Assembly (NCBI GenBank): GCA_965224465.1
Contig: OZ245049.1
Span: 60,001-92,000 of the forward strand
Length of the DNA: 32,000 nt
Source: Flavobacteriaceae bacterium
GTDB taxonomy: Bacteria > Bacteroidota > Bacteroidia > Flavobacteriales > Flavobacteriaceae
Reading direction: 5' to 3'
The notes beneath the pieces are model-generated. The model was not told the DNA's origin. It saw only the letters and a list, made by a program, of their open reading frames with translations, and did not search any database. Shown here one piece after another: positions 214-25,716 of the stretch (within the stretch, counting starts at the first letter, position 1; the number at the start of each line of letters is the position of its first letter). Made by a program: the position numbers and the translations under genes.

Positions 214-394
214 TTTTAATAGCCAACAACAACCAATAATTAGTAATGATACACTAGCCACTTTAACGCTGTTTATTGCTTCAAGTAAACCAGATGAAAT
301 GGAAACAGTAAAACGATTAGTAATTAGCGTACTCAATAGAAATAAATAAATAAAATGACAGATGCAACTATAATATCAAAAATATGGAACCTTG

Positions 395-730
395 TACCCG
401 CTGCGCAAAGTCTCCCGACTTAGCGCCACCATATTGCTCACATTATCAAAGAAAAAATATAAGAAGATTACATCGTAAGAGATCAAGAAAAGATACATTT
501 TATTACAGCTACTGTTAAAGATGTAATTATAGAAAGCTTAGAGTTTTGTATTCAAGTGCAACAAATTATATAAACAATGAAGGGTTACTTCCAGTGACAC
601 TTGTGGGCAATCCAGTAATTGATTATTAAAAACATCAACGATTAAGAAATTGAATCAAGAATAAAAATGAATGTAGGAAATTAACACATAAAAACAAAGC
701 TCAAAGTCGGGAGACTTTGCGCAGCGGGTA
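395..730 (+). mobile_element. Copy 1 of a ~340-bp hairpin-ended non-autonomous element with a decayed Y1 (RayT/IS200-like) transposase stub
   Basis: A perfect 27-bp terminal inverted repeat: tacccgctgcgcaaagtctcccgactt (395-421) versus aagtcgggagactttgcgcagcgggta (704-730). Each end also folds on itself (403-426 GCGCAAAGTC-tccc-GACTTAGCGC; 699-722). The interior reads EKIHFITATV/KDVIIESLEFCIQ followed by stop codons. Confidence 0.7.
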
Positions 731-734
731 GTTC

Positions 735-792
735 GCCAAATGTATTACTTTTATGTTTGAAAAAAAATAAACATAAAAGTAATACATTTGGC
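735..792. repeat. Perfect 24-bp-arm inverted repeat (hairpin) with a 10-nt loop
   Basis: gccaaatgtattacttttatgttt (735-758), loop gaaaaaaaat (759-768), aaacataaaagtaatacatttggc (769-792). The arms are exact reverse complements. It lies 4 nt after the right end of element copy 1 and 80 nt upstream of the lipoprotein ORF. Confidence 0.85.
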
Positions 793-872
793 TAATTGAT
801 AAATGAAAATCAGTACTTTTAACTTGCCCTACGATTTTTTATACTGGGCGTTGTATATAACTAAAAAAGACT

Positions 873-1499
873 ATGAAAATAAAAATACTTGGAATTACAT
901 TGGGTTTAATTGCCTTACTTAGTTGTAGTGAAAAAGCTGAAAATAAAGTAGAATTGCAAGAAGTTCAGAATGAAACACCTCAAGTACTTGACCAAAATAC
1001 TGATTACAAATTAAGCTCTATTTCCAAAAGATACAGTTCTGATATTATTTCAAAATTATATAATGAAGCTCTTGAGAAAAGTTCAAAACTCAATCAACTT
1101 AATGATGAAATAAATGGCGTTTTAGAAACTAAAAATGATAGCCTTTTAAATTACTCGAAATTTTCACAAACAAATACTAATTATTGGACAACAGCAAATA
1201 GTTATGTAAATCAGATACAAGATTCTGTTCTTAAAGAATCAACTCTTGAAGTTATCAAGGTTCTCGAATCAACATACAAGAATAAAATGTCTATTTACGA
1301 GCAGAAACTAATAGAAATTGACAAAAAGACAATCTCATTAAATGACCAATTGATATTAATGAAATTAGTTGTTACTGAGCCAATGATGAAAAATTATCAG
1401 CGAAATGAAAAACCTAACATTAAATCTTTAGAAATGATTATTAGTGAATATGACAGACTTATAAAAGAAACTGAAGAATACACTAATTTTGAAAAATAG
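873..1499 (+). CDS. Hypothetical lipoprotein (208 aa)
   Basis: ATG start. The N-terminus MKIKILGITLGLIALLSCSE is a signal peptide with a lipobox-like LLSC. The rest is a K/E/N-rich helical sequence with no recognisable enzymatic motif. It is flanked by element copies 1 and 2 in direct orientation. Confidence 0.55.
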   Translation: MKIKILGITLGLIALLSCSEKAENKVELQEVQNETPQVLDQNTDYKLSSISKRYSSDIISKLYNEALEKSSKLNQLNDEINGVLETKNDSLLNYSKFSQTNTNYWTTANSYVNQIQDSVLKESTLEVIKVLESTYKNKMSIYEQKLIEIDKKTISLNDQLILMKLVVTEPMMKNYQRNEKPNIKSLEMIISEYDRLIKETEEYTNFEK

Positions 1500-1521
1500 C
1501 AACGTACAAACAACTAAGTTT

Positions 1522-1863
1522 CGCTGCGCAAAGTCTCCTGACTTAGCGCCACCATATTGCTCACATTAGCAAAGGAAAAAGAATTAAAAAATAAAAGAAG
1601 GTTACATCATAAGAGATCAAGAAAAGATACATTTTATTACAGCTACTGTTAAAGATGTAATTATAGAAGCTTAGAGTTTTGTATTCAAGTGCAACAAATT
1701 ATATAAACAATGAAGGATTACTTCGAGTGACACTTGTGGACAATCCAGTAATTGAAGTATTAAGAAAAGCATCGATTAAGAAATTAAATCAAGAATAAAA
1801 ATGAATGTAGGAAATTAACATATAAAAACAAAGCTCAAAGTCGGGAGACTTTGCGCAGCGGGG
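1522..1863 (+). mobile_element. Copy 2 of the hairpin-ended Y1-stub element
   Basis: Colinear with 395-730 over its whole length. The left end is cgctgcgcaaagtctcctgactt (one substitution) and the right end is aagtcgggagactttgcgcagcggg. There are a few indels and substitutions in the interior. Confidence 0.7.
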
Positions 1864-1923
1864 AAAGAGGCCGAAAAAATTAAGAAAGTTTCACAAAAAA
1901 AAGAAGAAAGTAAAATGAGGCTG

Positions 1924-3040
1924 AATTCAAGTCACAAACGCAACTTTTAGTTAAATAATAATTGTTCCATTACAAATATAGGGTTTTGATATTTATGTCT
2001 CTTCCTAGGTCTGTTATTTAATTTTGTTTCTACCTCTTTGATTCTTTGATCTGTTAGGTTTGTAAAGTCACTTCCTTTGGCAAAATATTGTCTAATCAAA
2101 CCATTTAAATTTTCGTTAGATCCTCTTTCCCAAGAGTGATATGGATGCGCAAAAAAGTAATCAATACATAAATTTTCTGCAACCTGCTCATGGCCTGCAA
2201 ATTCTTTTCCATTATCAGCTGTTATAGTATGTAGATAAGGCTTCCAGTCTTCTAATATTTCATTGATAGCTTTAGTGACAACAACTGCTTCTTTAGAGCT
2301 TACTTTTTTCATTTTAAGCATTCCAGAAGCTCTATCATTTACGGTAAGTATGGCTTGATTATGGTTTTTACCTATGATTAAATCGACCTCTAAATCTCCA
2401 AATCGATTTCTTTGTTCAACAACTTCAGGGCGTTGTTCTATACTAATACGATTCTTTATAACCCCTCTAGAATCCTTTGATGAGCCACGTTTTCTATATC
2501 TCCTTCCCTGTCTGCGAAGGTGTGTATGTAAATCACCATCATTCCTCTTGTCTTCCCTAATATGCTGATATATACGCTCAATAGACACCGTTTCTTTACC
2601 TTGTTTTTTTAGGACACCAACTACTTGCTCAGGACTATAATCGTCTCGCAATAACAACTCTATTGCTTGTTGAATATCTTCTGTAAAGCGTTTTCTTTTA
2701 GGCTTTTCTTTATGACGTTTAGCATACTTTTTTTGGGCTAATTCATGCTTGTAAACTCCATTTCTTTTGTCTGAATTACGCTTAATCTCTTTGCTAATAA
2801 CAGACTTGTCTTTTCCTATAGCAGCTGCTATCTCAACCTGTTTATAACCTTGTTTTAACATGCAACAAATTGTGTATCTTTGCGCTTGGGTGATGTGTTT
2901 CATACAACTTCTTTTTTCGAGATTTGAGACCGTAAGATACATATCCATCAAGACAAGAAAGGTAGGTTTTCCTACTTTTCTGTTTTGAAAATATAACCAT
3001 CATAGAATCAAATCGAAAAGTTGCGTTTATTAGTTGAATT
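1924..3040 (-). mobile_element. IS30-family insertion sequence (complete copy)
   Basis: 25-bp imperfect terminal inverted repeats: aattcaagtcacaaacgcaactttt (1924-1948) versus aaaagttgcgtttattagttgaatt (3016-3040), with 22 of 25 positions complementary. They enclose a single transposase ORF. The exact outer ends are uncertain by a few bp, and no clear target-site duplication was seen. Confidence 0.75.
1947..2903 (-). CDS. IS30-family DDE transposase (318 aa from the ATG at 2903)
   Basis: MKHITQAQRYTICCMLKQGYKQVEIAAAIGKDKSVISKEIKRN is the typical IS30 N-terminal HTH. The DDE region reads DLEVDLIIG ... ITADNGKEF ... SWERGSNENLNGLIRQY. The ORF-track start at 2951 adds 16 poorly supported residues, so I prefer the ATG at 2903. 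Confidence 0.85.
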   Translation of the reverse strand: MKHITQAQRYTICCMLKQGYKQVEIAAAIGKDKSVISKEIKRNSDKRNGVYKHELAQKKYAKRHKEKPKRKRFTEDIQQAIELLLRDDYSPEQVVGVLKKQGKETVSIERIYQHIREDKRNDGDLHTHLRRQGRRYRKRGSSKDSRGVIKNRISIEQRPEVVEQRNRFGDLEVDLIIGKNHNQAILTVNDRASGMLKMKKVSSKEAVVVTKAINEILEDWKPYLHTITADNGKEFAGHEQVAENLCIDYFFAHPYHSWERGSNENLNGLIRQYFAKGSDFTNLTDQRIKEVETKLNNRPRKRHKYQNPIFVMEQLLFN

Positions 3041-4077
3041 TAAGTAACGATATATCTTTGTATAAAAAGGAAACTAAATTATTATTTAAAAAGATTCAAC
3101 AAGAGAGAAAATTTGCAGAGTTTATTGATGAATTAATAAATAGTTATGGTGACTTAATGGATCATATTGATTCCTTTTTATTAAAAGAACAAAGTGAATT
3201 AATCTTACAAATTAAAGGAAGAATCTTAGGATATTATAATGAAATAAACAAAGGAGACTCAAATGATGAAATAATCAGTGAAATAGAATTTAATCAGCAG
3301 AAAGATAAGACTTATTCAATTGATTTAGAGAGAAGTGATGGTTTTAAAAATGCAGGTGTAATTTTAAGTGAAGGGCATTTAAGATCGTTAGGATTATCTA
3401 TTATTTTATCCATAGCTGAATCATCTAATGTTCCATTTATAATTTTTGATGATGTTGTAAATGCTATTGATTCTGAGCATAGAGCAAATATTATAGACAT
3501 GATGTTTGACAATAAATTTTTAAAGAAAATTCAAATAATTGTTACAACTCACGATAGATTATTCTGGGAGAGATTTTGTAATATATATTCTAGTAAAATA
3601 AATAGAAAAGAACTATCTTCAATTAGCTCTTGTTTTAAATATCAAAATCAAGGAATTATCTATGTACCTTATCAAATTTCTTTTGAAGAAAAGATTAAAG
3701 AAGCATTATGTTATTCGGATATTAGACAGGCTTTAGTTTATTTAAGAATATGGTTTGAGACAATATGTTTCAATTACTGTAAAATGGCAAAAAAAACCAT
3801 TACTGGTCAATTTTCGCAAGATAATACAGGTAATTCATCACAATTAATGGTTTCGTTGACTAAAGTTTACAATAACATTATAACTCCCTCTTTTTCGTCA
3901 AGTGATAATTTAAAAGTAATTAAAGACAAATTAAATTGGAAATTTTTAAATCAAGAACATCACTCGTTTGATGAAAACATATTTAATGTAACTCATTCAA
4001 CAACGAGTAGTGAAATTGAAGATATTTTTATAGCAATTAAAAATTTTGAACAAGAAGTATTACAATCAAATAAATAA
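3041..4077 (+). pseudogene. 5'-truncated ABC/SMC-type (AAA_13/PrrC-RloC-like) ATPase gene, cut by the IS30 insertion
   Basis: The ORF-track ORF 3034-4077 starts at a TTG inside the IS30 right IR. The product has a signature-like LSEGHLRSLGLS, a Walker B PFIIFDDV, a D-loop AIDSEH and an H-loop VTTHD. It has no Walker A anywhere. A coiled-coil-like stretch precedes the signature, and about 170 aa of unassigned C-terminal sequence follow. Confidence 0.65.
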
Positions 4078-4292
4078 CGAACGCCAATAACACTCGTACA
4101 CCTCTAAAAACGCCGAAAAAACATTCTAAACAAGCTAGTAAACACCTGAAAGCTACTAAATACGCATAAGTACTCCCCGTAAAAACAACGATACTATCTA
4201 ATGTTAAAACGCCACGTTTACCATAAGAACAAGTACTCTTGTTGAGATTCTGAAAAACAGAGGTTATTGGTTGAAAATTTTTAAAAAAGTAA

Positions 4293-4342
4293 TTAAAAGG
4301 TTAGTGTGCGAAAAGGATATCTTTTGTATATTTGAAGGACGC
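4293..4342 (+). promoter_or_regulatory. Candidate Bacteroidetes-type promoter/operator (P1) upstream of ORF 4509-5183
   Basis: Contains TATATTTG (4327-4334), which fits the Bacteroidetes -7 consensus TAnnTTTG. The 50-nt block matches 6679-6727 at 39 of 50 aligned positions. A hairpin, cgctgtat-gttgt-atatagcg, lies just downstream (~4340-4362). Confidence 0.4.
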
Positions 4343-4508
4343 TGTATGTTGTATATAGCGGATTTATAAATAAATGCACCACTATTGTAGCTATTACGTA
4401 AATAACGTCAAGTTTAGGGTTGCTGTTGTGGATGTAGAGGTAGTTATCTGTAGTTTGAGTCAGCTTTTAGCCTAAATAAAAATGTGATACTTAAATAAAT
4501 CTCTTAGA

Positions 4509-5183
4509 ATGAAAAAAGTAACAGTAAAAAATCTAATTCAATTTCGAGGAAAAAATGAACGAACCAAAATTACGTTTGTTCATAATCTTAAGAAAGAAAA
4601 AAAGAAGTCTGAAGATAGTTCTGGAGGTGATTATTGGATAAGTTGTTTAAGTGCAATTAGAAATTCGTTTAGACTTAATGATGAAAGTTTATTGGATGAG
4701 AAAATAGATTTATTAAGAGATAAAATTGACGTAACAGAAATAAAAAGGATAAAAGACCAATTTCAAAGAAACATTGAGATTGTGGATAGCTTTAAAGAAT
4801 ATGATTTAAAACAACTAAAACCTAATACTGACTTAACTTTTTTAAAGCAAGCTAAAGCCGTGTCTTTATTGAATATTAATGGACTTCCTATAGAAGCTAA
4901 ACCTTGTCACATTTACACCTTTTCCGAAAACAGTAGTGAGGAAATTGGAGGGATTTGGTTTGTCGCAAAATTAAAAGGATTTAAGAAAAGTGAGTTGGGA
5001 ATGTTTACTGATGTACTTTATCGATATTTGGATAAAAATTACTCAAAAGACTTTTACGTTAACCCAGATTATTGTGTTGCTGTTGACCTTTTCAATGCTC
5101 AGGAAGTAAATTATTCAGATATTAAGAATGGAATAGTTCCAATCTTAATTGATAGTACAATAGAAGAACTAAATAAAATATAA
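4509..5183 (+). CDS. Hypothetical protein (224 aa), neighbour of the truncated ATPase
   Basis: ATG start and a clean ORF. There is no motif I can assign (MKKVTVKNLIQFRGKNERTKITFVHNL...GGDYWISCLSAIRNSF...). It is on the same strand as the ATPase remnant, 431 nt downstream of it. Confidence 0.5.
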   Translation: MKKVTVKNLIQFRGKNERTKITFVHNLKKEKKKSEDSSGGDYWISCLSAIRNSFRLNDESLLDEKIDLLRDKIDVTEIKRIKDQFQRNIEIVDSFKEYDLKQLKPNTDLTFLKQAKAVSLLNINGLPIEAKPCHIYTFSENSSEEIGGIWFVAKLKGFKKSELGMFTDVLYRYLDKNYSKDFYVNPDYCVAVDLFNAQEVNYSDIKNGIVPILIDSTIEELNKI

Positions 5184-5242
5184 AATCATGTTAGAATACA
5201 GTATTTCAGGAGTGTGGAAATATAATAATAATGTGATAATCC

Positions 5243-5384
5243 GCTCTCGTACGATTGTATAGTGTGATCGTAGCAATTTTAAGAATACTTAATATGAACT
5301 ATTTTTGCATATTACAATAATACATGAAAAATAAATAATTGTACGGCTTACTCGTTGACGCTACACGATAAAATCGTGCGGGAG
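5243..5384. mobile_element. Short (142-bp) MITE-like element with ~45-bp imperfect inverted ends containing a CACGAT-NNN-ATCGTG hairpin core
   Basis: The left end is gctctcgtacgattgtatagtgtgatcgtagc (from 5243). The right end is 5341-5384, whose reverse complement reads ctcccgcacgattttatcgtgtagcgtcaacgagtaagccgtac. The same end types recur at 5752 and 6546-6588. The right sub-terminal interior (ataatacatga.aaa.taaataa.tg.a.ggc) also matches the long copy. Confidence 0.5.
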
Positions 5385-5417
5385 TGGGGTTGCCACACAT
5401 AAAAAAAACAGAAACCA

Positions 5418-5687
5418 ATGGGAACATTAGAAAACAAACTTAAAACAGTTTCTGAAAAATACAGAAAGGAATATGCTTCAGTTTGCGAACCAATAAATGG
5501 TTTGGAATCTAGACGTGATAACGCTTTGAAATTTGACCCAATTAATGAAAAATTTAGGGACCAAATAATTGATGAGTTAAATAAATATTTAGAAAACAAT
5601 ATCGATTCTGACAAAGAGTCAGCCATTAAAATAGGACAAAAATATATCAAGGGTTTTGAGAAATATCTTATTGATCCTTTTTGTTAA
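5418..5687 (+). CDS. Small hypothetical protein (89 aa)
   Basis: ATG-initiated ORF lying between the two MITE-like elements. It is a helical K/E-rich sequence with no recognisable domain. The overlapping minus-strand ORF 5348-5650 looks less protein-like. Confidence 0.35.
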   Translation: MGTLENKLKTVSEKYRKEYASVCEPINGLESRRDNALKFDPINEKFRDQIIDELNKYLENNIDSDKESAIKIGQKYIKGFEKYLIDPFC

Positions 5688-5831
5688 TTGGTTGAATAAT
5701 GATTTCAAATCCTTCTTTATTCAATTCTTTTTCAATTTGAAACAATTTTCAGCTCTCGCACGATTGTATCGTGTGACCGCAGTAATTTAAGACTATTTTT
5801 TTAAAAAAAAAGACAATAAAAGTGTAATAAA

Positions 5832-6290
5832 ATGAATATTGAAAATACTTTAAAAAACTTATATAAGAGGTTAAAAGATTGTAATAATAAACATAAATCA
5901 GGAATTTTGTTTTTAGTGATTCAGTTGAAAACAGAAAATGAAGATTTAAAAAACCTTAAACAAACTAAATATAAGGATATTAAGTTATTTATAAAATATT
6001 ATATTAAATCTAGTGATAAAAGGGGGTTTGGGTATGATATTGTTAATGTAAGTAAGATCGTAAAGGCAATATCATATAATTCAAATATAAAAGAGAGATG
6101 TGAGCTGACTGTTTTTGCTATTAGTGTCTCGCTGCGCAAAGTCTCCCGACTTAGCGCCATCATATTGCTCATATTAGCAAAGAAAAATGAATTAAAAATA
6201 AAAGAAGGTTACATCATAAGAGATCAAGAAAAGATACATTTAATTACAGCTACTGTAGTGGATTGGGTAGATGTGTTTACAAGGAAATAG
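5832..6290 (+). CDS. Chimeric ORF: ~98 aa of unknown sequence fused in frame to the Y1-transposase stub of element copy 3 (probably not a functional gene)
   Basis: From about residue 100 the translation (VSLRKVSRLSAI...KEGYIIRDQEKIHLITATVVDWVDVFTRK*) is encoded by the inserted element, whose left end is at 6130. Confidence 0.3.
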   Translation: MNIENTLKNLYKRLKDCNNKHKSGILFLVIQLKTENEDLKNLKQTKYKDIKLFIKYYIKSSDKRGFGYDIVNVSKIVKAISYNSNIKERCELTVFAISVSLRKVSRLSAIILLILAKKNELKIKEGYIIRDQEKIHLITATVVDWVDVFTRK

Positions 6291-6505
6291 TACAAAGATG
6301 TAATTATAGAAAGCTTAGAGTTTTGTATTCAAGTGCAACAAATTATATAAGCAATGTAGGGTTACTTCCAGTGTCACTTGTGGACAATCCAGTAATTGAT
6401 TATTAAAAAAATCAACGATTAAGAAATTGAATCAAGAATAAAAATGAATGTAGGAAATTAACACATAAAAACAAAGCTCAAAGTCGGGAGACTTTGAGCA
6501 GCTGG
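6130..6505 (+). mobile_element. Copy 3 of the hairpin-ended Y1-stub element (least deleted copy)
   Basis: Colinear with copies 1 and 2 but retains a net 36 extra nt, so it encodes GYIIRDQEKIHLITATVVDWVDVFTRK. This matches the conserved N-terminus of Bacteroidetes RayT/IS200-like Y1 transposases (..Y.FRDQ...YF.TFTVV.WIDVFTR..YKD....SL..C) as I recall it. The right end is degenerate (ttgagcagctgg). Confidence 0.7.
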
Positions 6506-6678
6506 ACTCTATTTACATGAATAATACATGATAAACTAAATAACTGCATGGCTTACTCGTGGACGCTACACGATACAATAGAATGCAGTAGCGATGGTGG
6601 TTATTCATGCTGTATCAGAGGTTTTACTAAGTTTATGAATAACAAGAGTTAATAGCTAAAAATTTCCGAGTTGAATTG

Positions 6679-6727
6679 TTAAAAAGATAGTATGCGGGAA
6701 GAAATATTTTGTATCTTTGAAAGATGC
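6679..6727 (+). promoter_or_regulatory. Candidate promoter/operator (P2) of the channel-nuclease operon
   Basis: TATCTTTG (6712-6719) fits the -7 box TAnnTTTG. The block is 39 of 50 identical to P1 at 4293-4342. A perfect 15-bp direct repeat, aaattaaattgatta, occurs at 6736-6750 and 6781-6795, between the box and the ATG at 6843. Confidence 0.4.
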
Positions 6728-6842
6728 AATGGAGAAAATTAAATTGATTATAATAAGTTTTTATGTTCCATAAAATAATGAAATTAAATTGATTAAATGC
6801 ATTTATTAATTCCTGACATTTTGTAATCCCCAATGACTAAGA

Positions 6843-7646
6843 ATGATCAAAAAACTCTTTTTAAACGATAAATTCATACTAGTATTAATTTTACTAAATG
6901 CAATAATAATATTTTTTACGGGCTTTGATTTAACTATTAATAATAAGTTTCTTTTTTCACTTACAGATCATTTGATAACATGCTTATTTATTGTTGAATT
7001 AATAGTTAAGTTTAACGAGTTTGGAATTAAAAATTATTTCAAATCTAATTGGAGAAGGTTCGATTTTATTCTAATTTCCTTATCAGTACCAACATTGATT
7101 GCGTTTGTTGGAGATGTAGAACTCACTAGTTTTAGTTACTTTCTAGTATTTAGGATTTTGCGTGTGTTTAAATCATTTCGATTTTTAAAATTCATACCTG
7201 GAATTAATCATTTAGTAAGAGGTGTTAGTAGAGCATTAAAAGCATCAGTTGTTGTATTAATAGGCTTTTTTATTTATATATTTATAATTGGATTATTTTC
7301 GTTCTCCTTATTTAAAGAAGTTTCACCTGAATTTTTTGGAAATCCGTTAATGGCACTTTATTCTATATTTAAAATTTTCACTATTGAAGGTTGGTACGAA
7401 ATTCCAGAACTAATAACTGAAGGTCTATCACCTATAGCGTCGTTCTTTACGTATTTATATTTTATTTTCGTGGTGATGTCAGGAGGGATATTTGGTTTGT
7501 CACTTGTAAATTCAATTTTTGTAGATGCTATGGTAAGTGACAATAATGACGAACTTGAAAAGAAAATAGAAATATTAAATAGTAAGATTGATACATTATT
7601 AGCAAAAAAATATATATATAATGAAATTAGAAAAAATATTAGATAA
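6843..7646 (+). CDS. BacNav-type voltage-gated cation channel subunit (Ion_trans family, 6TM, 267 aa)
   Basis: Six hydrophobic segments. S4 has positive charges at every third residue (FRILRVFKSFRFLKF). The pore loop FTIEGWYE resembles the NaChBac/NavAb filter TLESW. S6 is FFTYLYFIFVVMSGGIFGLSLVNSIFVDAM. The C-terminal coiled-coil-like tail is DELEKKIEILNSKIDTLLAKK. Confidence 0.8.
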   Translation: MIKKLFLNDKFILVLILLNAIIIFFTGFDLTINNKFLFSLTDHLITCLFIVELIVKFNEFGIKNYFKSNWRRFDFILISLSVPTLIAFVGDVELTSFSYFLVFRILRVFKSFRFLKFIPGINHLVRGVSRALKASVVVLIGFFIYIFIIGLFSFSLFKEVSPEFFGNPLMALYSIFKIFTIEGWYEIPELITEGLSPIASFFTYLYFIFVVMSGGIFGLSLVNSIFVDAMVSDNNDELEKKIEILNSKIDTLLAKKYIYNEIRKNIR

Positions 7647-9474
7647 AGTAAATTCGCTAGAAAAGAATTCTTTTTTAAAAATTATAGATACTATTATTTC
7701 AAACAGGCCTAAGAATTATAAGGAAATTGAAAAGATACTATCGGAAAACAATACTAACCTTAAAGGCATAGATAACATCAATATTGCTAAAGTTTTTAAC
7801 CTTATTACAGATGAATTTACAAATGTGATAAAGCAAGAATTTGTAGATACATCCTCACAGCTTGATATTTTAATTGATATTATTATCCGAGATGCTCATA
7901 ATTTGATTAAAGAGGATTGGTTTGTAAAACTTTATGAAAAAGAAATTAGTGGTCTTAAAAGTAAAACGGAAGCCCTAAGTCAAAACCTAGAAAATAATAA
8001 ATCAGACATAGAGAATCAACGAAAAAGAGATTATTTGATTTATAAATCATGTGTAGAGACTGCCTATTTTAATGATAACGTGAGTAATAGAGATACGAAA
8101 ATAACAAGTGATGAATTATCTATTCTGTTAACGCTATCTAATGAACTTAAATTATCACAAGAAGAAATTAAGCTAATAAATTATATCGTAATTCCTCCTG
8201 TCAAATTACAAATTGAAAAAGTAATTAATGATTTAAAATCGGTTGGACTTATATTTTATTCAAAGAAAAACAGACAAGTTTATGTTGCGGATGAGGTTGT
8301 AAGAGTCTTAAGGGGAATTCGTAAAAAACAAGTTGCGGATAAATTTTATCGTCGTTTTTTAAAATTATTAAGAGAACCTCAAATAAATATAGTCTGTAGG
8401 AATCATAATATTGATATAAAATTATCTTTAGATCATAAAATAAAAAACATCATTAATGAGGGGATTTCATTTTCAAATTTGTTGGTAAATGAATTACATA
8501 AGGAAGGGACTTCATTAAATGAAAAAAAGAAATTTGTTAAAGAAATTTGGGAAAAAGGATTTGAAATCTCTGTTCCTCTTAAGGGAATAACCTTAGAAGA
8601 AAAAATTGAAAATTTAATAAGGTATTTTGATGAAATAGAGCAAGATGATAAAGTTGGAATCTCGAATGATGGTTATGGTCAACTTCTTTCTGATTTACAC
8701 GATACCTTTCCTTTACTAAATAATTTGATTCGATCAGAATTTGAAATTCAAAATGAATTTGTTTTGAACAATGTGTATTTGCGGGATTACAATATAAAAC
8801 CTAGGGATATTCTGGATATGATTGAGCAAAAGGATTTAATGAAGTTTTGCAATAAATATAATCTAAAAAAGCGAGGGAATAGTATTTTAAACATTCTTGA
8901 TGGTTATAAAGATGCTGAAAATCTATTTATAGAAAATTTCGAAAACATTGGTTTCAGAGACTTAAGATCACTGAAAGAGAATGGGATAAATATAAAAGAA
9001 GCAGAGTTAGGTGTTAAATTTGAAGACATTACAAAATCAGTATTTGAAAAATTAGGTTTTAATGTGGATGAGGATTTAAAAAAGAATCTTAATACTAAGA
9101 AAAATAAAATTGATTTAGTGTTAAATTTAGGAGATCAAGGTCTAATCATAATTGAATGTAAAACGGTAAAAGAGAGTGGTTATAATAAATTCAGTTCTGT
9201 AACCAGACAAATGAAATCGTATATAGATTTAGCGAAAGATAATGGACATAATGTTGTGAAATCATTGCTGATTGCACCGGGATTTAGTGATGAATTTGTA
9301 AGTGATTGTGAGATAGACTTTGAATTAAATTTATCATTGATAACAGCTTCTTCTCTTTTAAAAATATTAGAGGCTTTTAAATGTTCAAAACACAAAGCAT
9401 TTCCTTATCAACTCTTGATGAAAGACGTATTGATTAAAGAGGATAGAATAATTAAAGCGATTAATAAGAAATAA
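7621..9474 (+). CDS. 617-aa protein with a C-terminal Mrr-like PD-(D/E)xK restriction-endonuclease-fold domain and an unassigned N-terminal ~460 aa
   Basis: The ATG at 7621 overlaps the channel ORF by 26 nt. The C-terminus reads FEDITKSVFEKLGFNV...KIDLVLNLGDQGLIIIECKTVKE...VKSLLIAPGFSDEF...LSLITASSLLKIL. This fits the Mrr_cat pattern (FE..v..ll...Gf.v, D in a beta strand, then E-x-K). The N-terminal part is helical and contains several SAP/HeH-like stretches. Confidence 0.7.
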   Translation: MKLEKILDKVNSLEKNSFLKIIDTIISNRPKNYKEIEKILSENNTNLKGIDNINIAKVFNLITDEFTNVIKQEFVDTSSQLDILIDIIIRDAHNLIKEDWFVKLYEKEISGLKSKTEALSQNLENNKSDIENQRKRDYLIYKSCVETAYFNDNVSNRDTKITSDELSILLTLSNELKLSQEEIKLINYIVIPPVKLQIEKVINDLKSVGLIFYSKKNRQVYVADEVVRVLRGIRKKQVADKFYRRFLKLLREPQINIVCRNHNIDIKLSLDHKIKNIINEGISFSNLLVNELHKEGTSLNEKKKFVKEIWEKGFEISVPLKGITLEEKIENLIRYFDEIEQDDKVGISNDGYGQLLSDLHDTFPLLNNLIRSEFEIQNEFVLNNVYLRDYNIKPRDILDMIEQKDLMKFCNKYNLKKRGNSILNILDGYKDAENLFIENFENIGFRDLRSLKENGINIKEAELGVKFEDITKSVFEKLGFNVDEDLKKNLNTKKNKIDLVLNLGDQGLIIIECKTVKESGYNKFSSVTRQMKSYIDLAKDNGHNVVKSLLIAPGFSDEFVSDCEIDFELNLSLITASSLLKILEAFKCSKHKAFPYQLLMKDVLIKEDRIIKAINKK

Positions 9475-9493
9475 CTGAATTACCAACAAAAAA

Positions 9494-9526
9494 AAGCCAA
9501 CACTCCCAAAAAAGGAACGTTGGCTT
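9494..9526. terminator. Bidirectional intrinsic terminator between the convergent nuclease-domain gene and pfaD
   Basis: The stem is aagccaac (9494-9501) / gttggctt (9519-9526), with inner tcc/gga pairing. It is flanked by an A-run upstream and a T-run (9525-9529) downstream. Confidence 0.6.
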
Positions 9527-9551
9527 TTTAAATAAATATTCAGTCATTAGA

Positions 9552-11156
9552 TTACCCCACAACCAAACGCTCCACCTCAGGTTCCAATTCCAATTGCAAC
9601 AAGCCAATCGGTAATTCCACCCCTTGGTCCTTAATCGTATTGATACGATGCAAATACGCAGCACCTTCCAACAACTGTAAAGCAACATCCGCAACTTTAC
9701 GGTTTTTAGCTTCGCTTAGGTAGGAATCTTTGGTCCATTCGTTAAAGGCACCCATGGCAGGGCCACACCAAATTTGATAGTCCATAATTCTGTCTGGCGT
9801 ACCAGCATTTGCCCAGTTAGAAGACAAGCCTAGGTACCAACGGAAGATCAATGCCATTTTTCGTTTTGGGTTTTGCTTGGCTCTTGCTATTTGTTCTGGA
9901 TCTCTTTCTTCGAAGAAACTCACACAACCTTCCCAAACCTTTTCTAAAGGCATTTTAAAAGTCTGTTTCTCTAATTTTATACGTTCGTCTGCTGGGATTG
10001 CATCGATGCTCTCGTAGCGGTTGTAATAATCGTATAGTTTTTTTGCTCTGGCACCGAATAAGGTACCGCGTTTTAAGACTTGCAATTCCACGCCCAATTC
10101 GAACATATCGGAAGCGGGAGCCATGGTCACATCCGTAGAAGCGACTTTGGACAATAATTCTTTTACACCCTCCGAAGTACCTGATTCTATACAAGCTTGG
10201 TTGATAGAACCCGTTACGATATAGGCAGCACCCATGGCAAAAGCAGCTAATGCCGCCGCAGGGGTTCCGATACCACCGGCTGCACCCACACGGAGTTGTT
10301 TTTTGTACTGGTATTTTTGTTGAAGTTCGTCTCTTAATTGTAAGATGATGGGGAACAAGACTACCAAGGGACGGTTGTCCGTATGTCCTCCAGAATCTGC
10401 TTCTACGGTAATATCATCCGCCATGGGTACTTGTTGTGCAAGCGTGTGTTGCTCTTGAGTGATTTTCCCTGCGGCGAGTAAGTTGTCTAAGAATTTAATA
10501 GGTGCGGGAGACATAAAACGTTCTGCCACTTCTTTTCGAGAGATTTTCCCGATCACTTTATTTCCGATGATTATTTCTCCTTGTGCGTCTCGGCTCAATC
10601 CAACGGCTCTGTATTTTACAATTTGCTCGGATAAGTTCATATACGCCGAGGCTTCTACGACTTTTACTTTGTGTTTGATAAATAAATTCACAGCACCTTC
10701 TTCCAATGCCTTTTCAATAGGACTGTGGATGAGGTTGCAAGCGTAGGTTTGTGTAGGCAAGCCTGCTTGAATTTCGGCAATGGCTGCTTCTACACGTGCA
10801 GGAATCATTCCGGCGGCTCCAAAGGAACCCATCAGTTCGTTTCTTCCTAAAGAAATCACCATATCGGTAGAGGCAATTCCGTTTGCCATGGCGCCTCCTT
10901 TATAGGCGTAGCTGAGGTTGTAGTCTTCTTTAAAAGATGTGTCTCCGAGGTCTTTTGCTGTAAAAGCGGGAACAATTGCTTTTAAAAACAAACCATTTCC
11001 TTCAGATTGGATTGTTCCTGTATTGGTAATTCCGATGCGTCCTGATAAATCTTTTACCACATAGCATGGAATGGCAGTGTTTTTTAATTTTTCGGACATT
11101 CCTTTGTGGTCAAAGGAGATCTCTCTGGGAGATCCTATCCATTTTAAATCGATCAT
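9552..11156 (-). CDS. pfaD: PUFA synthase enoyl reductase PfaD (FMN-dependent, 2-nitropropane dioxygenase-like)
   Basis: GGAMANGIAS...MGSFGAAGMIPARVEAAI...CNLIHSP...VEASAYM...VEADSGGHTDNRPL...VGAAGGIGTP closely parallels Shewanella PfaD as I recall it. The ORF-track start at 11198 is a TTG, so I prefer the ATG at 11156 (MIDLKWIG...). Confidence 0.9.
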   Translation of the reverse strand: MIDLKWIGSPREISFDHKGMSEKLKNTAIPCYVVKDLSGRIGITNTGTIQSEGNGLFLKAIVPAFTAKDLGDTSFKEDYNLSYAYKGGAMANGIASTDMVISLGRNELMGSFGAAGMIPARVEAAIAEIQAGLPTQTYACNLIHSPIEKALEEGAVNLFIKHKVKVVEASAYMNLSEQIVKYRAVGLSRDAQGEIIIGNKVIGKISRKEVAERFMSPAPIKFLDNLLAAGKITQEQHTLAQQVPMADDITVEADSGGHTDNRPLVVLFPIILQLRDELQQKYQYKKQLRVGAAGGIGTPAAALAAFAMGAAYIVTGSINQACIESGTSEGVKELLSKVASTDVTMAPASDMFELGVELQVLKRGTLFGARAKKLYDYYNRYESIDAIPADERIKLEKQTFKMPLEKVWEGCVSFFEERDPEQIARAKQNPKRKMALIFRWYLGLSSNWANAGTPDRIMDYQIWCGPAMGAFNEWTKDSYLSEAKNRKVADVALQLLEGAAYLHRINTIKDQGVELPIGLLQLELEPEVERLVVG

Positions 11157-11404
11157 TTTAGTGTCTATATTTTGAGTCTTGTGTCCTTTAATTTTCAATA
11201 AGTATTATTATTAATGGACTGCTTAAGACGGTTGTTTATTGCCTTGCTTCTAAAATTTTTTTAAAGAAGCCTCTTTATTGTTTTTCAAATCTTTTTTTAA
11301 TCCCACCAGTGGGTTTAATTTTCCGATGCTTGTATCGAAATGATTAAGGGTTGTTTTCTCTTTTTTATGCCTCGTAGTCCTGAGCTTATTGACTGTTGTA
11401 TTTC

Positions 11405-11508
11405 GCATTAAGGATAGAACGGCCTGTTTGAGCTCTTTTTTTGTTTTTTTACAAAAAAAAGCGAGTAGTGAAAGCCTGACCCGACCTTTTTTGGGAGGGG
11501 AATGCCCA
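11405..11508. repeat. Intergenic repeat family member X (related to 27589-27697)
   Basis: Shares with 27589-27697 the ordered blocks gcat..ggatag.a..ggc, an all-A/T hairpin tttttttgt-tttttt-acaaaaaaa (11436-11459), ccgacctttt and atgccc. Confidence 0.5.
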
Positions 11509-11524
11509 CATTATTTTAAAAATT

Positions 11525-11559
11525 AAGGAGGAAGATTTTATGCATTTTCTTCCTCCCTT
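11525..11559 (-). terminator. Hairpin immediately after the pfaC stop codon (possible intrinsic terminator/attenuator)
   Basis: On the minus strand the sequence reads AAGGGAGGAAG-aaaatgcataaaat-CTTCCTCCTT followed by AATTTTTAAAATAA. The core stem is 8 perfect bp. The T-tract is short and interrupted. Confidence 0.4.
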
Positions 11560-11564
11560 GTTTT

Positions 11565-14500
11565 TTATGCTTCCTGAATTCCAATGGCTAAATCTGTCAA
11601 TTGATAGATTCTTGTGCCTTCGTTCCACAGATACGCATTGGCGATAATTACCAAGGTGTCTTCTCGTTTTTCGATGGTTTTAAAATGCACTTCTAAATGC
11701 ATGTTTTCCACGTTTACTTTAATTTGTCCGCGGTATTTCCATTCGGTTTTATTATTAGCGACCTGTACAAAGCGTGGTTTTTTAAAGTCTTTTCCTAAGT
11801 CTTGTTGTAGGGCGAATAACTGCATGGCTTGTGAAATGGCTTCGACGCCTAAGGATCCTGGCATTACAGGGTCTGAGTAAAAATGACAGGTAAAGAACCA
11901 GTCGTAGGTATGGATGGCTTTGGAGCAATGGATGTATCCTTTGCCAAATTCGCCGCCGTCTTTTACGAGCAATCCGCTGTCTAGTAAATTCAATTGATCT
12001 GTTGATAAACGGAAGGTGTTTGTTGGATCATTTTCTTTATACAATTTCATTTTTGCGTATAAAGAGTCGAGCTTGATTTGGAAATAATCCTTGGGGGTCA
12101 ACTTGTTTTGTACATACCATGCGGGTACGTCTTTCCCATTGTCCAAGCCTACTTGTTGTGCCAAGGCTTCTTTAGGGAAGAATCCGAAGGAGGAGAATCC
12201 TTTATAGAACACATAGCCGTCTACGGAGACTTCGAAGAGGTATTTCTGAATTACAAAACCGCCTAATGCCGTTGAGGAGGTTAAGGTTGCTTTGTTGTGA
12301 ATTACTTTTCCTCTAAAGTCGGTACCTGCGGGGAGGTCGATCATTTCGCCATCTCCATCCAAGTTTCTAAAGTATAAATCTTTGTCTGGGAATTGTAGGG
12401 TGGATCCTAAATAGGCGCCTAACAATCCACAGGGTTGCAATGCTATTTCCATTAAAATGGCGTACGGCATGGTCATGGAAGCGTTTTGTGTGTAATACCA
12501 CGCATCGGCTGGCACGTCGTATTCTGTCCAAATATTTGTTGCTTTTTTAAAGTTAAATCGTTCTCCGTCTATTTTAATAACACGGCTTACGACTTGCAAG
12601 TCGGTATTTGGTTGGCGGGACAAGGCTCTGTTGTCATACACGGCGTATTCTGGACCAAAACAATCTGCCAATCTGCCTAAGGCAAAGGTTTCGATGTCTT
12701 GTTCGTTGAGCAATACGTTCTCGGTTATTTTTTTAGGTTGTTCTAGGTATTTTGGATTGTCTTTTTCTCTTATTTGCAATCCTAAATCGGCAAAATGAAC
12801 GGTAATTACACCGTCTACAATAATTTCTAAATCGCCAATCACATAAGGGTCTGGCAACAATCCGATGTCTTTAATTACCAAGCGATACATTAATTTCTTA
12901 TCATTAGGGGTCACTTCTTTTCTACAACGTACTTTTTGAGCAACTCCGTAGATAGGTTGGAAACGTGCATCTTTTTTAAGGCGTTGTAGCCCTAGCATCA
13001 TCATAAAGAAACGGAGTAAGTTACCGCCGCCTTCTGCTTGTAAAGATCCTGCCAATACTTGGTCGTCTCTAAAATGACAAGGGAAATACCAATCGTCTGG
13101 ACTTAGGTCTTTTTCTGCTATAATTTCTCCCAATCCATAAGGACCTCCGTGGACGTCTGCTTTGGTAATGCGATCCAACATCAGCATTTTTTCTGGTGCT
13201 AAACGGATGGATTTATTTTTACCGTTGGGGAAGTAGGAGATATCGTCAAAACATGTATGTGCATCTCCGTTGATAAGATGTCTTAAATCCTGAATATCAA
13301 ATGCGGTCTTTTTAGTAGTTAAAAAGGGAATGAATTTTTTCTTTTCTACGCCCGCTAAAATTTTCTTTTCAGCTTCGGTATATACAACACCATTTCCTTT
13401 ACTCAATTCTTCATCGGTAAAGAAGCCAGCCACTCCATTGGTCATTTTTAAGACAAGGCGGTCTTCTACAAAGCATTCGTAGCTAAAGAAGAACAATAGG
13501 TTACGTCCATTTCTTACAAAGGAATTGATAGAGATATCATAACGTAGGGTTTGCCCTTCAAAAGGCAGGTCGTCCGTAAAGGTAAGCGTACAGTCGAGTA
13601 GGCGATAGACATAGTCTCCTTTGTTTTCTAAGTCGATGCCTAAATAAGAGATCAACATCAAATCACATTGTCCTGATTCTACCGAAACTGCCCATGGGAT
13701 TTGTGTATCGGTGGCATAGCCTGAATTGTAAGGAATGTCGTATTCCGTTTGCATGGTAGACGGTTTGTATTCGCCTAGCTTGGCATTTAATCCTGTGACT
13801 CTACTCACCAATAGGTAAGGATCCATAGGAAGCATCACACGGCGTTTGTATTGGTCGATTACATTGTATTCCGCACCAAAGACATTGCTTATTTTACCTT
13901 CGGAAAATTCGATTAAATCTTCTTTGTTAAAAATAATGTTTTTCCCTTTTAAATGATTTGGGTCTGTGTAATCTTGTAATTTTAAGCCGTTTTCTGCGAT
14001 TGTTGTTGCAGTTTTAGGTGTTGTGTTAGCTATCATATACCTTTTTTTCTCTAATGTGTTTGTGCTAGTAATTGGGATTTTTAAGTCCGTTTTTTGGGGT
14101 GTATTTGCTTCTTTCTTTAGGTGTTTAATTTGAGCAAATTGATGTTTCATATCTTCGGATAATAAGACATCGTATATACGTCTTCCTCCTGTTTTAACTT
14201 TTTTGCTAAATCTTTTTTTAAGGATTGTTTCTTGTTGTTTTGGATATAACAGTCCTAGGTCTACCTCAATGCCGTTTGCAATTAATTGTGCCAAGCACTC
14301 GAACAATGATTGTACGGAACTGCTTCCTTTCTTATCGATGGCACAGCTAGCATGGGTTTTTTGATCCAAGGTTCCTTTGATCCAATTGCTACAGGTACTA
14401 TTAGGGCCTAGCTCTACAAAAGTGCTAAAGCCATTTTTTGACATTTGATGAGCAAAGGCAGGGAAATCTACTGTTTTATAACATACTTCTGTCGAATTTT

Positions 14501-17500
14501 GGGCGATTTTTAAACTGTCCATCGGAAGTTTTTTTCCTGTTAAACTAGAGTAGAATTCGATGTCAGGACGTTGTTCCAAAGGGAAATTGTGCATTTCAAT
14601 AAGTCCGTCGTATTCCTTTTTACAGAATTCGTTATGAATAATGTTTTGAAAGGGAACCAATATAGATCCACAATTTAATTCGGAGATAAGGGCTTTACAC
14701 TGGCTTTTATCACCCGAAATAATCAATTCCTTGTCCGAATTCACAAAAGTGATAGAGACTTTGTCAAATTTAGAAATTACAGCTGCAACGTCTTCTTTTT
14801 TTGCTAATAAAATCCAGCTTTGCCACCTTTCTTTTGCTTCGGTTGTAGTTATATTCCACGCATCTGCCAATACTTCTAAGTTTCCAGAAAATTTATTTTT
14901 AAAGATAGGGGAGTTGCGAAACACCTTGGTACCTTCACTTGGATTCCAAACACCAAAAGCATACCACATAGAACTGCATTCTCCCATGCTATATCCCATA
15001 GCAGCTTTTGGTTTGATACCAAAATAGTTTCTTAAAATATGGGTGTACAACGTGGCGTATAAAACACCTGCCGACATCATAGAAATGGCGTCTTTTTGTA
15101 TGGGAGGAGTCTGTTCTGCGGTGGATTGTTTTTTAGGGAAAATATAATTTAAGGAAAAGAATTCCTTAAGGTTTGGAATGCGTGTTTCAAAATCGTGGAG
15201 TAGCTGGGGGAAGAATTGAAATAAATCCTGTCCTAGCCCTTCATAACTGGTGGCGGATCCTGGATATACAAATGCTAAATCTCCCTTGGCTGCCGAGGGT
15301 GTTGGTGTAAAGAACGTACCGCTTGGTAATTTGAGGTCTGTCCCTGTTTTAAACGAAGTGTCTACTTGTTTTTCTAAGAATTTAAGGTCTTGTAAGAGTG
15401 CGTTTTTATCCTTAGCAATCAATACAATTCGATGGCTTTTTTTAAGGGTTTTTTCCTTGTTAAAATGTGCTTGGGCTAGGGCATTCAAGCTTGTTGTAGC
15501 AATGTTTTTGTGAAGGGTTGCTATTTGTGCTTTGAGCTCGTTGGCATTGTTTCCTTGTAAAACCAATATATGCGTACCCAAATAATTATTGATAGGTGCT
15601 TTGTCTTCTCTGATTACTTCTGACAATTGCACGCGATCTTGCAATCCTAAATTCACCATTGCCTGTCTCGGAACAGCTGTTTCGTTTACCCAAGGTCTTG
15701 ATTGACTAGGGAAATAATAATTACTGTTTTTGAGTGCCTCATTTTTAAAAGCTTTCCAGTTAGGAATGCCTGGGATAAATTGATGGTATACACAAAGTGC
15801 TGTCTTTACGATAGCTGCCAGTCCAGAAGCGGCAAAGGTATGTCCAATGTTTGTTTTTACCGATCCTAAGGCAACCTTGTTTAAGGGTTTTGCTTGTATT
15901 AATTGTGCTTGCTCTAATTGGTCTTCTTGGTGAAACCCTGTAGCGACTAATTCTTGCAAAGCGATATTGGGATGGATGTCTAAATCACCAATGGCTTCTA
16001 TTTTTGCATAGACAGTATCTGCTTTAGAGACATCTTCATTGGCTTTTAAAACGATGGCTGCGGCTCCTTCACCAATCAACCAACCGTAGTCGTCTGCATT
16101 AAATGATAGGCTAGGGCGTTTGTTTTGGTTTACCTGAGTGACTAAATTTCTCAAGAGTACAGCTTCCATTCCTGCGGAGAATTCTACAGCACCTACAACT
16201 ACGGCATCTACTTCGCCTAAGGACAACATGTTTTGTGCAACTTCTAAGGCTCTGGTGGTTCCTTGATTTCCGTTACTAATGGTAAAGGAAGGCCCACTGA
16301 AATCCCAAAGGGCAGAAATACGACTCGACATAATATTTCCTACAAAACTTGTATGCTGACTCGGCGCTTGTACCTTTCCTATTTGATATAGGATGTTTCT
16401 ACACTCTGCTAAAAGGGTTGTTTTTTGAGTTTTGTCTAAATCGATACCTGCCATGGCTAAGGCTTTGTCCAATTGCCATTGACTGTCCCAACGTGCTAAG
16501 TAATGATGAATTGCCAATTCTGGATTCATGGCAACTAATACCGCTACGTTTTGTCCCTTTTTAAGATTCGATTTTTGAATGGCTTGATCCGCCACTTTTA
16601 AAATCAAGGCTTGTTGAGGTTCCATGGTATCAATTTCGTTGGGTTGGATTTTATAACGCATTAAATCCATGTCAAAATCAGCAATGTAATTTCCTTTCGG
16701 TGCCTGTTTTGTATCTAAACCAAAGGAAGCCATGACTTCTGATTGGGCTTCAAATCCTTTCCAACGATTCTTTGGCATCTCAGAAAAATGCTGTTTTCCT
16801 TCAAAAATAGTTTGGTAAAAATGATCTAAATTATCGCAATCGCCAAAATGAACTTCCATACTGGTAATTGCCATTTCTTTTAGAGGGGTCGCTTTTAAAG
16901 GGCGATGTGCATCTTTATTATGGCTTTCTACGACCAAATGCGCATTGGTACCACCAAAGCCAAACGAATTGACCGCGGCTTGCTTATGGTTTGTTTCCCA
17001 TTTTAAAGGTTCTTCTATGATTTGCTCTCGTTGAAACCAACCATTTTCTGACTGAATGGCTTCGCCCATATTAATTCCAGGAGGAATCATATCGTGCTCC
17101 ATAGAAAGCAATACCTTTATTAAACTTGGCATACCGGCTGCGGTAAGCATGTGTCCCATATTTGACTTTACAGAACCCAATCTGATTTTGTCTGGGTTTT
17201 CACCAAAAAAACTTTCTAAAGAATTGATCTCTGTGACATCGCCAAGGGGAGTTCCAGTAGCATGACATTCGATATAAGAAGTGTCCTTTTTAGAGAGACT
17301 TCCATTGTAGGCTCTTTCATACGCCAAGGTTTGTCCTTTTGGATTGGGGCTTAATAAAAATTTACCAGCACCATCATTGGACAATCCAATACCTGCAATC
17401 ACACCGATAATAGTATCTCCATCTCTTTCGGCATCAGACAATCGTTTTAATAAAATCATTCCTGCGCCTTCGGAAGAGACCAAGCCAGAAGATTCCTTGT

Positions 17501-18251: not shown

Positions 18252-18329
18252 TTTTTTAATGGTTGGACGGTTGGGGTATTTGGATTTGGTTGGGGCGTAT
18301 TGCAATACGCCCTTATTTTATACATTGGC

Positions 18330-20618: not shown

Positions 20619-20824
20619 TTTGGATTTTACAGCGATTGTTAATTCGCTTCCTTCATCGGTAATAACTACAGGTAGTAGGCTAGGGATGTGTTGTACTAAG
20701 AAATCTACTTTAGGAATAAATTTTATAGCGATAGATTTTCGGGGTACTTTGTGAAAGTTAGTAGGTAAGGAGAAGTCCTGTGTCGGTATCTTCTCCTCAC
20801 GTACTGTATTGTTTGGGGCTAAGC

Positions 20825-25711: not shown

Positions 25712-25716
25712 ATATG

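Follow-up and report, generated by a model that had tools for sequence, protein, structure and literature searches.

A pair of overlapping genes for a predicted voltage-gated cation channel and a putative nuclease was analyzed in a stretch of 32,000 nucleotides (the window) from a Flavobacteriaceae bacterium (GenBank assembly GCA_965224465.1, contig OZ245049.1, positions 60,001 to 92,000 of the forward strand). The genome is a single contig of 5.24 Mb, in which channel gene and partner gene each occur once. A first-pass annotation, made from the letters of the window, had described the two as an operon of a channel of 267 amino acids and a nuclease-domain protein of 617 amino acids. Both open reading frames (ORFs) and their overlap were recovered (Table 1), and the overlap suggests translational coupling.

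Table 1. Features of the channel-nuclease cassette and of its surroundings; positions are counted from the first base of the window
Feature	Position	Strand	Basis or remark
MITE (miniature inverted-repeat transposable element)-like copy 1	395-730		repeat analysis
MITE-like copy 2	1518-1862		repeat analysis
IS30-family transposase gene	1947-2951	minus	element 1924-3040, 25-nt flanking inverted repeats
ORF at the right end of the IS30 element	3034-4077		matches defence ATPases in part
ORF extending into MITE-like copy 3	5832..6290		probably not a real gene
MITE-like copy 3	6122-6511		~36-nt bounding inverted repeats; upstream edge of the cassette
Sole Bacteroidota-type -7 box in the upstream gap, TATCTTTG	6712-6719	+	124 nt before the channel ATG
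Channel ORF, 267 amino acids	6843..7646	+	Ion_trans; 26-nt overlap with partner
F49, E52 (S2) and D74 (S3), likely charge-transfer centre	6987..7064	+	invariant in 33 sequences
S4 segment: R104, R107, K110, R113, K116 at every third position	7143..7199	+	alignment A4
Selectivity filter T180-I-E182-G-W184, then Y and E186	7380..7394	+	alignment A4
Post-S6 motif, residues 223-235	7509-7547		common to paired and solo channels
Post-S6 cytoplasmic region: D233-N234-N235 neck motif, then short heptad segment	7539..7628	+	
Overlap of channel stop region and partner start, 26 nt	7621..7646	+	ORF coordinates
Partner ORF, 617 amino acids	7621..9474	+	FokI-like nuclease-domain protein
Partner residues 1-430: helical, winged-helix-like and three-helix modules	7621..8910	+	AlphaFold2, VIA-align
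Partner residues 431-607: PD-(D/E)xK nuclease domain, FokI cleavage-domain type	8911..9441	+	VIA-align, Foldseek
Catalytic set D498, E512-x-K514, Q530-xxx-Y534	9112..9222	+	alignment A2
17-bp G+C-containing hairpin, A-run on one side and T-run on the other	9491-9529	both	terminator scan
PUFA (polyunsaturated fatty acid)/polyketide synthase-like cluster	9552-25780	minus	pfaD-like gene first

The channel protein matched the Pfam profile Ion_trans (PF00520) with 96.3 bits against a cut-off of 25 (E 2.1e-27), residues 10-234 covering profile positions 6-237 of 241. Its sequence matches comprised the solved chains of NavMs, NaChBac, and NavAb, with E-values for these bacterial voltage-gated sodium channels (BacNavs) down to 1e-21, and single repeats of CaV and NaV channels. 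It is therefore predicted to be a BacNav-type, six-transmembrane voltage-gated cation channel, which bears out the identity first proposed for it. Conservation was read from 33 sequences of the channel subfamily (alignment A4). F49 and E52 presumably lie in S2 and D74 in S3, a placement that follows the layout of other BacNavs. In S4, no variation was seen at R104, R107, K110, and R113, and K116 is conserved in at least 90% of the sequences, so that the arginine or lysine at every third position that had been read from the letters is confirmed, as is the TIEGW filter, in which T180, G183, and W184 are invariant and E182, like the nearby E186, reaches at least 90%. With its S4 charges, S2/S3 residues, and filter conserved, the protein looks like a working voltage-gated cation channel.

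With NaChBac, NavAb, and NavMs it shares a single six-transmembrane subunit of about 260 amino acids, basic S4 residues at every third position with counter-charges in S2 and S3, a T-x-E-x-W filter, and a putative C-terminal neck with a short heptad-like segment behind it. It differs from them in its filter, TIEGWYE, which resembles the CaV-type TxEGW and carries a second acidic position, whereas that of NavAb and NaChBac is TLESW; a meaning of this difference for selectivity between Ca2+ and Na+ is something we only infer. A further difference is the S-D-N-N motif behind S6. D233-N234-N235 is invariant, and neither the solo channels nor those with an HSDR_N partner lack it. It closes a longer invariant motif, N-S-I-F-V-(D/E)-x-M-x-(S/A/Q)-D-N-N, that is common to the paired and solo channels of the subfamily and for which we know of no counterpart in described BacNavs. 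For the C-terminal coiled coil claimed in the first-pass annotation, which in BacNavs has four helices, the sequence shows a short run of hydrophobic residues with 4-3-4-3 spacing (L238, I242, L245, I249, and L252), a pattern in the sequence only and consistent with a short coiled coil. Finally, the channel gene is tied to nuclease genes, a connection for which the literature search found no paper on any BacNav.

The partner belongs to a family with more than 2,800 matching database proteins, nearly all of those listed being 616-617 amino acids long and annotated as hypothetical; at 50% identity the family forms 332 representative clusters, mostly of fragments. It had been taken for an Mrr-like PD-(D/E)xK protein, and the motifs FE...VFEKLGF, IDLV, and IIIECK are indeed present. 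The match to Mrr_cat (PF04471), however, stayed at 16.3 bits (E 0.011), below the cut-off of 21, and covered residues 465-518 only. Neither the Pfam family FokI_cleav_dom (PF09254), searched up to E 0.1, nor NCBIfam yielded a match; searches of PDB sequences with the single sequence and with the family profile returned nothing useful, and the profile found no FokI chain. Across 31 sequences down to 26% identity (alignment A2), D498, E512, K514, Q530, and Y534 are all invariant, so the catalytic D/E/K residues on which the nuclease assignment hinged are conserved throughout the family. They are assigned to a PD-(D/E)xK core with a trailing QxxxY motif on the basis of this alignment. The earlier suggestion that the nuclease domain might be an inactive DNA-binding sensor is spoken against by these intact residues.

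The AlphaFold2 model of the partner had a predicted local distance difference test score (pLDDT) of 89.9 and a predicted template modelling score (pTM) of 0.80, and residues 1-432 folded alone gave a pLDDT of 90.7. With residues 430-607, the highest VIA-align scores were obtained for FokI (Z 14.6, root-mean-square deviation 3.1 over 152 residues), N.BspD6I (13.6), and the small subunit of R.BspD6I (12.2); HindIII (Z 10.2), AF1548 (9.6), and LlaBIII (8.1) followed lower, the nuclease domains of the last two being of Mrr type. The PD-(D/E)xK part of the earlier assignment thus stands, and the label Mrr-like gives way to FokI-type (Z 12-15 vs 8-10). Foldseek searches with the whole-length model found N.BspD6I at E 5.5e-5 and FokI at E 3.6e-4, and the nearest named ESM Atlas clusters were those of FokI_cleav_dom, one of them together with SAP. 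In the N-terminal part, a winged-helix-like module at about residues 60-235 scored Z 6-7.5 against ORC/Cdc6, NLR winged-helix, TubR, and SarA domains, and a three-helix module at residues 242-292 scored Z 6.1 against a segment of FAN1 that we take to be its SAP domain. Residues 1-432 alone found no Foldseek match at E 0.001 or better, and no housekeeping family was matched by the N-terminal part in Pfam, NCBIfam, or fold searches, so this check on the earlier note came out in its favour. The N-terminal region is presumed from the model to bind DNA, which gives the predicted protein a Type IIS-like layout of an N-terminal recognition region and a C-terminal FokI-type cleavage domain.

The Type IIS restriction and nicking enzymes FokI and N.BspD6I/R.BspD6I are accordingly the closest known proteins: they share the length of about 580-620 amino acids, the order of recognition region and PD-(D/E)xK cleavage domain, the cleavage-domain fold (Z 12.2-14.6), and the D...(D/E)xK active site. 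Unlike them, the partner has no match to FokI or FokI_cleav_dom at the sequence level, its N-terminus offers, in place of clear FokI recognition subdomains (D1-D3), only the generic winged-helix matches and the small three-helix match, no methyltransferase lies beside it in the surveyed loci, and its family is about 60% identical across phyla. With the Mrr/Mrr_cat Type IV enzymes it has in common the PD-(D/E)xK superfamily, a D...ExK core, and the lack of a methyltransferase, but it falls below the Mrr_cat cut-off, and its matches to AF1548 and LlaBIII lie well below those of FokI type. The 617-amino-acid FokI-like family is itself new.

Relatives of the partner were surveyed in a collection of one genome per species (185,579 species), in which 420 genomes carried them, and 80 loci were kept. 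The protein is about 60% identical across Bacteroidota, Calditrichota, Ignavibacteriota, Latescibacterota, Lentisphaerota, and Chlorobiota. No methyltransferase family was found among the recurrent neighbours of the 80 loci, nor any methyltransferase in bases 1-9500 of the window, and there was no conserved third gene, the 144 flanking ORFs hitting 151 different Pfam families. No relatives were found in IMG/VR contigs or GenBank phages, which gives no sign of phage carriage. On plasmids there were only three, at about 34% identity, on large Pseudoalteromonas replicons and all without a channel. Distant solo homologues in Pseudoalteromonas (L166, L167) adjoin an HNH endonuclease gene, and what follows downstream is not the same in the two strains, as would be seen at a variable hotspot. 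Near-typical copies were also seen on short contigs of metagenome-assembled genomes labelled Saccharibacteria or Paceibacterota (L041, L054, and L067, the last two with a channel); they group with Bacteroidota in the tree, which points to binning contamination or recent transfer.

Of the approximately 75 partner loci with enough upstream sequence, 29 have the channel gene directly in front of the partner. They come from different genera and phyla, and in them the partner starts between 32 nt before (overlap) and 5 nt after the end of the channel ORF. Adjacency in other genomes, which the first-pass annotation had left to be seen, is therefore real and, together with the linkages described below, recurrent. 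It is also optional: the partner stands alone in about 46 of the 75 loci (some 60%), one of which (L015) holds a possible channel remnant of 31 amino acids beside it. A sample not chosen via the partner was drawn from the order containing Carboxylicivirga sp. A043, where the channel subfamily occurs in 35 of 401 genomes, and 30 loci were examined. The 617-amino-acid partner was located downstream of the channel in three of them, immediately upstream with a gap of about 12 nt in two (L163, L164), and upstream with one ORF between in one. An HSDR_N-type PD-(D/E)xK protein was encoded downstream in four loci (L134, L142, L157, L159), a GmrSD_N/HEC-05-like gene lay upstream in two (L155, L156), an AbiEii gene upstream in one, and the remaining 17 channels had housekeeping contexts. 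Across the wider subfamily, the channel is solo in about two thirds of loci. The intervening ORF (257 amino acids, L165:3362-4135, identical to L140:690-1463) had no Pfam or PADLOC match and could be a third component or an insertion.

Look-ups in metagenomes and assemblies added three pairs with the 617-amino-acid protein (L081, L082, and L130, the last from Polaribacter sp. SA4-12), HSDR_N partners downstream with overlaps of 17-20 nt (L083, L103, L131), HSDR_N genes followed by more distant channels (L087-L090), and one solo close channel homologue (L132). The HSDR_N partner, of about 350 amino acids, belongs to an unrelated PD-(D/E)xK family and is found on either side of the channel, and its D...ExK...QxxRY pattern is intact in 10 of 10 cases. 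A channel-docking domain common to the HSDR_N and 617-amino-acid partners was considered and rejected, as the two have nothing in common outside the nuclease core. Prediction of a 1:1 complex of channel and partner with both alignments scored 0.00, which is no verdict, and is not used as evidence.

In the partner tree, every case of a channel followed by a partner falls in one clade of 43 with a support of 100. This clade has 13 solo members, which implies at least nine losses of the channel. Its sister clade of 36 is entirely solo among the sampled loci, and the pairs in reverse order (L163, L164), which fall in this otherwise solo clade, thus go back to a second association, separate from the first. 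The channel tree has a well-supported clade of 40, in which 33 channels are linked to the 617-amino-acid partner; nested among these are four HSDR_N-linked channels, which indicates that the partner was exchanged in place. Further HSDR_N-linked groups and those with an upstream partner lie elsewhere in the tree, which by this reconstruction requires at least five separate nuclease pairings, the exchange of partners being one of them. Pairing is the rule in the clade of the window's channel, with 37 of 40 rows and four of five in the partner-independent sample, and only two solo channels were found inside paired clades. Channel and partner distances over 27 pairs were correlated with a Mantel r of 0.87, which none of 2000 permutations reached; the correlation shows stable co-inheritance, not contact. 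At least five independent and often overlapping linkages with three unrelated restriction-type families would be hard to explain otherwise than by a functional connection. The coupling of channel and nuclease is stronger than could be seen from the letters of the window: it arose several times over, involves more than one nuclease family, and occurs with either gene first.

Within the window, the cassette lies in a region with a G+C content of 25-35% (bases 1-10000), compared to 33-45%, mostly 36-41%, over bases 10001-32000. This region holds an IS30 element and, in three copies, a MITE-like element that is about 340-390 nt long and has terminal inverted repeats of 28-36 nt (CGCTGCGCAAAGTCTCCCGACTTAGCGC and its complement), in agreement with the mobile-element-rich island noted before. 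The third copy ends 331 nt upstream of the channel ATG; an ORF extends into this copy and is probably not a real gene. The channel was absent from all 28 sampled genomes of the same family, which, together with the single copies of both genes, shows that the cassette was acquired horizontally. The hairpin behind the pair was one of 2 terminator-like sites in the scan, compared to 0.9 in shuffles, and the bidirectional terminator recognized earlier is thus retained as a predicted one, common to the pair and the convergent pfaD-like gene. The promoter-like block claimed in front of the pair did not hold up. Sigma-70-like sites numbered 18 against 22.7 expected from shuffles, the single -7 box in the gap has no -33 TTG at the proper spacing, and with 31 occurrences of this motif on the same strand across the window it is no better than chance.

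The ORF at the right end of the IS30 element resembles mad3/AriA/AbiL-type defence ATPases in their C-terminal half only, and a gene of this kind may thus have been split by the insertion; the fragment counts among the defence genes seen near instances of the pair. On the other side, the PUFA/polyketide synthase-like cluster, with a pfaD-like gene (PfaD_N) followed by ORFs of 2246, 762, and 1651 amino acids, has the normal G+C content of the genome and directly borders the low-G+C island. Defence-related genes were also observed at other loci. In Polaribacter sp. SA4-12 (CP019334.1), two genes of the PADLOC candidate system PDC-M22 lie directly downstream of the channel-nuclease pair (L130:10967-13595; A 7e-135, B 5e-206, with B resembling LmuB). 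A gene for a Cas_TM1802 CRISPR-associated protein (L103:1100-2986) lies about 1 kb upstream of, and divergent from, a channel-HSDR_N pair. A TIR-domain gene (L084:860-1642) follows 198 nt downstream of a close channel homologue, and the AbiEii gene mentioned above precedes the channel of L162. The HNH endonuclease gene beside the distant Pseudoalteromonas homologues is a further example.

The reading that we favour, at a probability of about 0.4, is that of a functionally coupled, mobile module whose genes are inherited together and which probably targets invading DNA, with the nuclease as its effector and the channel tying nuclease action to the state of the membrane. The 617-amino-acid protein would bind DNA with its N-terminal region and cleave it with its C-terminal FokI-type domain. 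Having no companion methyltransferase, it is probably modification-dependent or held inactive until triggered. The channel would be a homotetrameric voltage-gated accessory that links the nuclease to the membrane state. Entry of phage DNA is accompanied by depolarisation or ion leakage. In response the voltage sensor would shift and the pore would open, and the open channel might then recruit the nuclease to the inner membrane, license it, or activate it there, perhaps in physical contact with it. This assignment of roles follows from the preserved nuclease active sites and the survival of nucleases alone, which point to a nuclease effector with an optional sensor or regulator, and from the complete voltage sensor and the constancy of the channel across pairings, which suit a membrane-coupled sensor or regulator. 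The many solo partner loci and the at least nine channel losses likewise fit an autonomous effector with an optional regulator.

A defence role of the pair is plausible, and it fits the patchy distribution across phyla at about 60% identity, the recent acquisition, the lack of a methyltransferase, and the defence genes beside several instances. The narrower proposal that membrane voltage itself is the immune signal, with the channel sensing depolarisation or a leak caused by DNA entry and licensing a methyltransferase-less FokI-like, HSDR_N-like, or GmrSD-like nuclease on the incoming DNA, is doubtful. Several points weigh against the favoured reading. Each gene is found without the other more often than with it and thus does not depend on it. 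No PADLOC-DB v2 model matches the channel, the 617-amino-acid partner, or the HSDR_N partners. The 144 immediate neighbours of the partner are mostly housekeeping genes with few defence-type ATPases, so that enrichment in defence islands is not shown. The 617-amino-acid and HSDR_N partners share only the nuclease core, and that at low probability. Nor is there an apparent means by which an endonuclease that lacks a methyltransferase would leave host DNA uncut, and the direction of signalling cannot be read directly from the sequence.

The opposite direction, which the first-pass annotation had put forward, would resemble Rex: the nuclease-fold protein would sense invader DNA or a replication intermediate and open or hold the channel, leading to depolarisation and abortive infection. 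The same co-occurrence evidence applies to it, a cation channel is a plausible suicide effector given RexAB and the membrane effectors of CBASS and type III CRISPR, and a constant channel with varying DNA-binding partners could equally represent variable sensors that feed one effector. We nevertheless consider it unlikely, and less likely than signalling from channel to nuclease, since a pure sensor would not need the catalytic residues that are invariant in both partner families, and a nuclease that occurs alone in most loci has its own function. Gating by a protein ligand would make the complete voltage sensor unnecessary, and solo channels in housekeeping contexts, which are common, would be odd for a dedicated suicide effector. 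It is also improbable that the two genes have no functional link at all and are a stand-alone or selfish restriction-type gene and a physiological ion channel brought together by joint mobilisation or a preferred insertion site. The solo state of both genes in most occurrences and the mostly housekeeping flanks are what such an origin would leave, co-divergence is expected for any co-transferred genes, and solo channels adjoin genes for an MCP-signalling-domain protein, an M3 peptidase, aldolases, and TrkH. Chance adjacency would, however, not keep picking restriction-type nucleases, as it would have had to do in at least five independent pairings with three unrelated families and in both gene orders. 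The genes moreover overlap or nearly touch in the 617-amino-acid family and one HSDR_N group, and pairing prevails in the channel clade of the window (37/40, and 4/5 in the partner-independent sample). A purely accidental association is thus the less likely explanation.

The pair could also be coupled for a purpose other than defence, with the channel reporting ionic, osmotic, or energetic stress of the membrane to a nuclease whose target is the cell's own DNA, as in programmed genome degradation, the handling of taken-up DNA, or an addiction pair resembling a toxin and its antitoxin. The evidence for coupling is the same as for the defence module, there is no cognate methyltransferase, and many pairs lie in housekeeping neighbourhoods. 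Even so, this appears very unlikely, because a patchy spread through horizontal transfer and the fact that the FokI-like, HSDR_N, and GmrSD_N-like partners are all of restriction type fit conflict systems better. The addiction version is opposed by the 13 solo partners and two solo channels inside paired clades, and toxin-antitoxin behaviour was rejected as the main model, each gene having repeatedly been kept after the loss of the other.

In a full-text literature search, no paper was found to connect Ion_trans or BacNav channels with restriction or defence genes, and with no PADLOC model for either protein, the statement of the first-pass annotation that no described system has this pairing is upheld. 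The combination of a membrane ion conductor with a nuclease is a known idea, in which a voltage-gated channel would be new. In Zorya, with its ion-driven ZorAB membrane complex and ZorC/D/E nucleases, and in Kiwa, a membrane sensor acts with soluble DNA-targeting effectors, according to the respective reports (10.1101/2023.12.18.572097, PMC11890865). The logic of a membrane-embedded, ion-conducting sensor and DNA-targeting effectors that differ between subtypes is the same, but there is no homology: the channel here is of the Ion_trans family and not MotAB/ZorAB, no PADLOC Zorya or Kiwa model matched, and the module has only two genes, which often occur alone. Chp1, one of the type III CRISPR/CBASS-type membrane effectors together with Cap14, is reported to be a tetrameric pore (10.64898/2026.08.05.743128). 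RexAB and these CBASS and type III CRISPR effectors resemble the pair in joining a nucleic-acid-related component to a membrane cation pore. They differ in that homology is lacking, that neither a CARF nor a SAVED domain is present here, and that the partner keeps a full nuclease active site and the channel its own voltage sensor.

Bacterial voltage-gated channels are central structural models for the NaV and CaV channels of eukaryotes, and to our knowledge, what they do for the bacterium is largely unknown. The repeated independent link to restriction-type nucleases offers a concrete and testable answer on the role of one widespread channel subfamily. The 617-amino-acid family represents a compact and highly conserved FokI-like endonuclease without a methyltransferase, which could have unusual specificity or regulation. 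If the defence role is true, the pair would be a system with a true voltage sensor and would extend the theme of membrane surveillance known from Zorya, Kiwa, and Rex. If voltage is indeed the signal, the pair would stand as the first defence system with a voltage-gated channel at its base and would give one branch of these channels a physiological role. There is a realistic prospect that the finding reveals a new principle of sensing.

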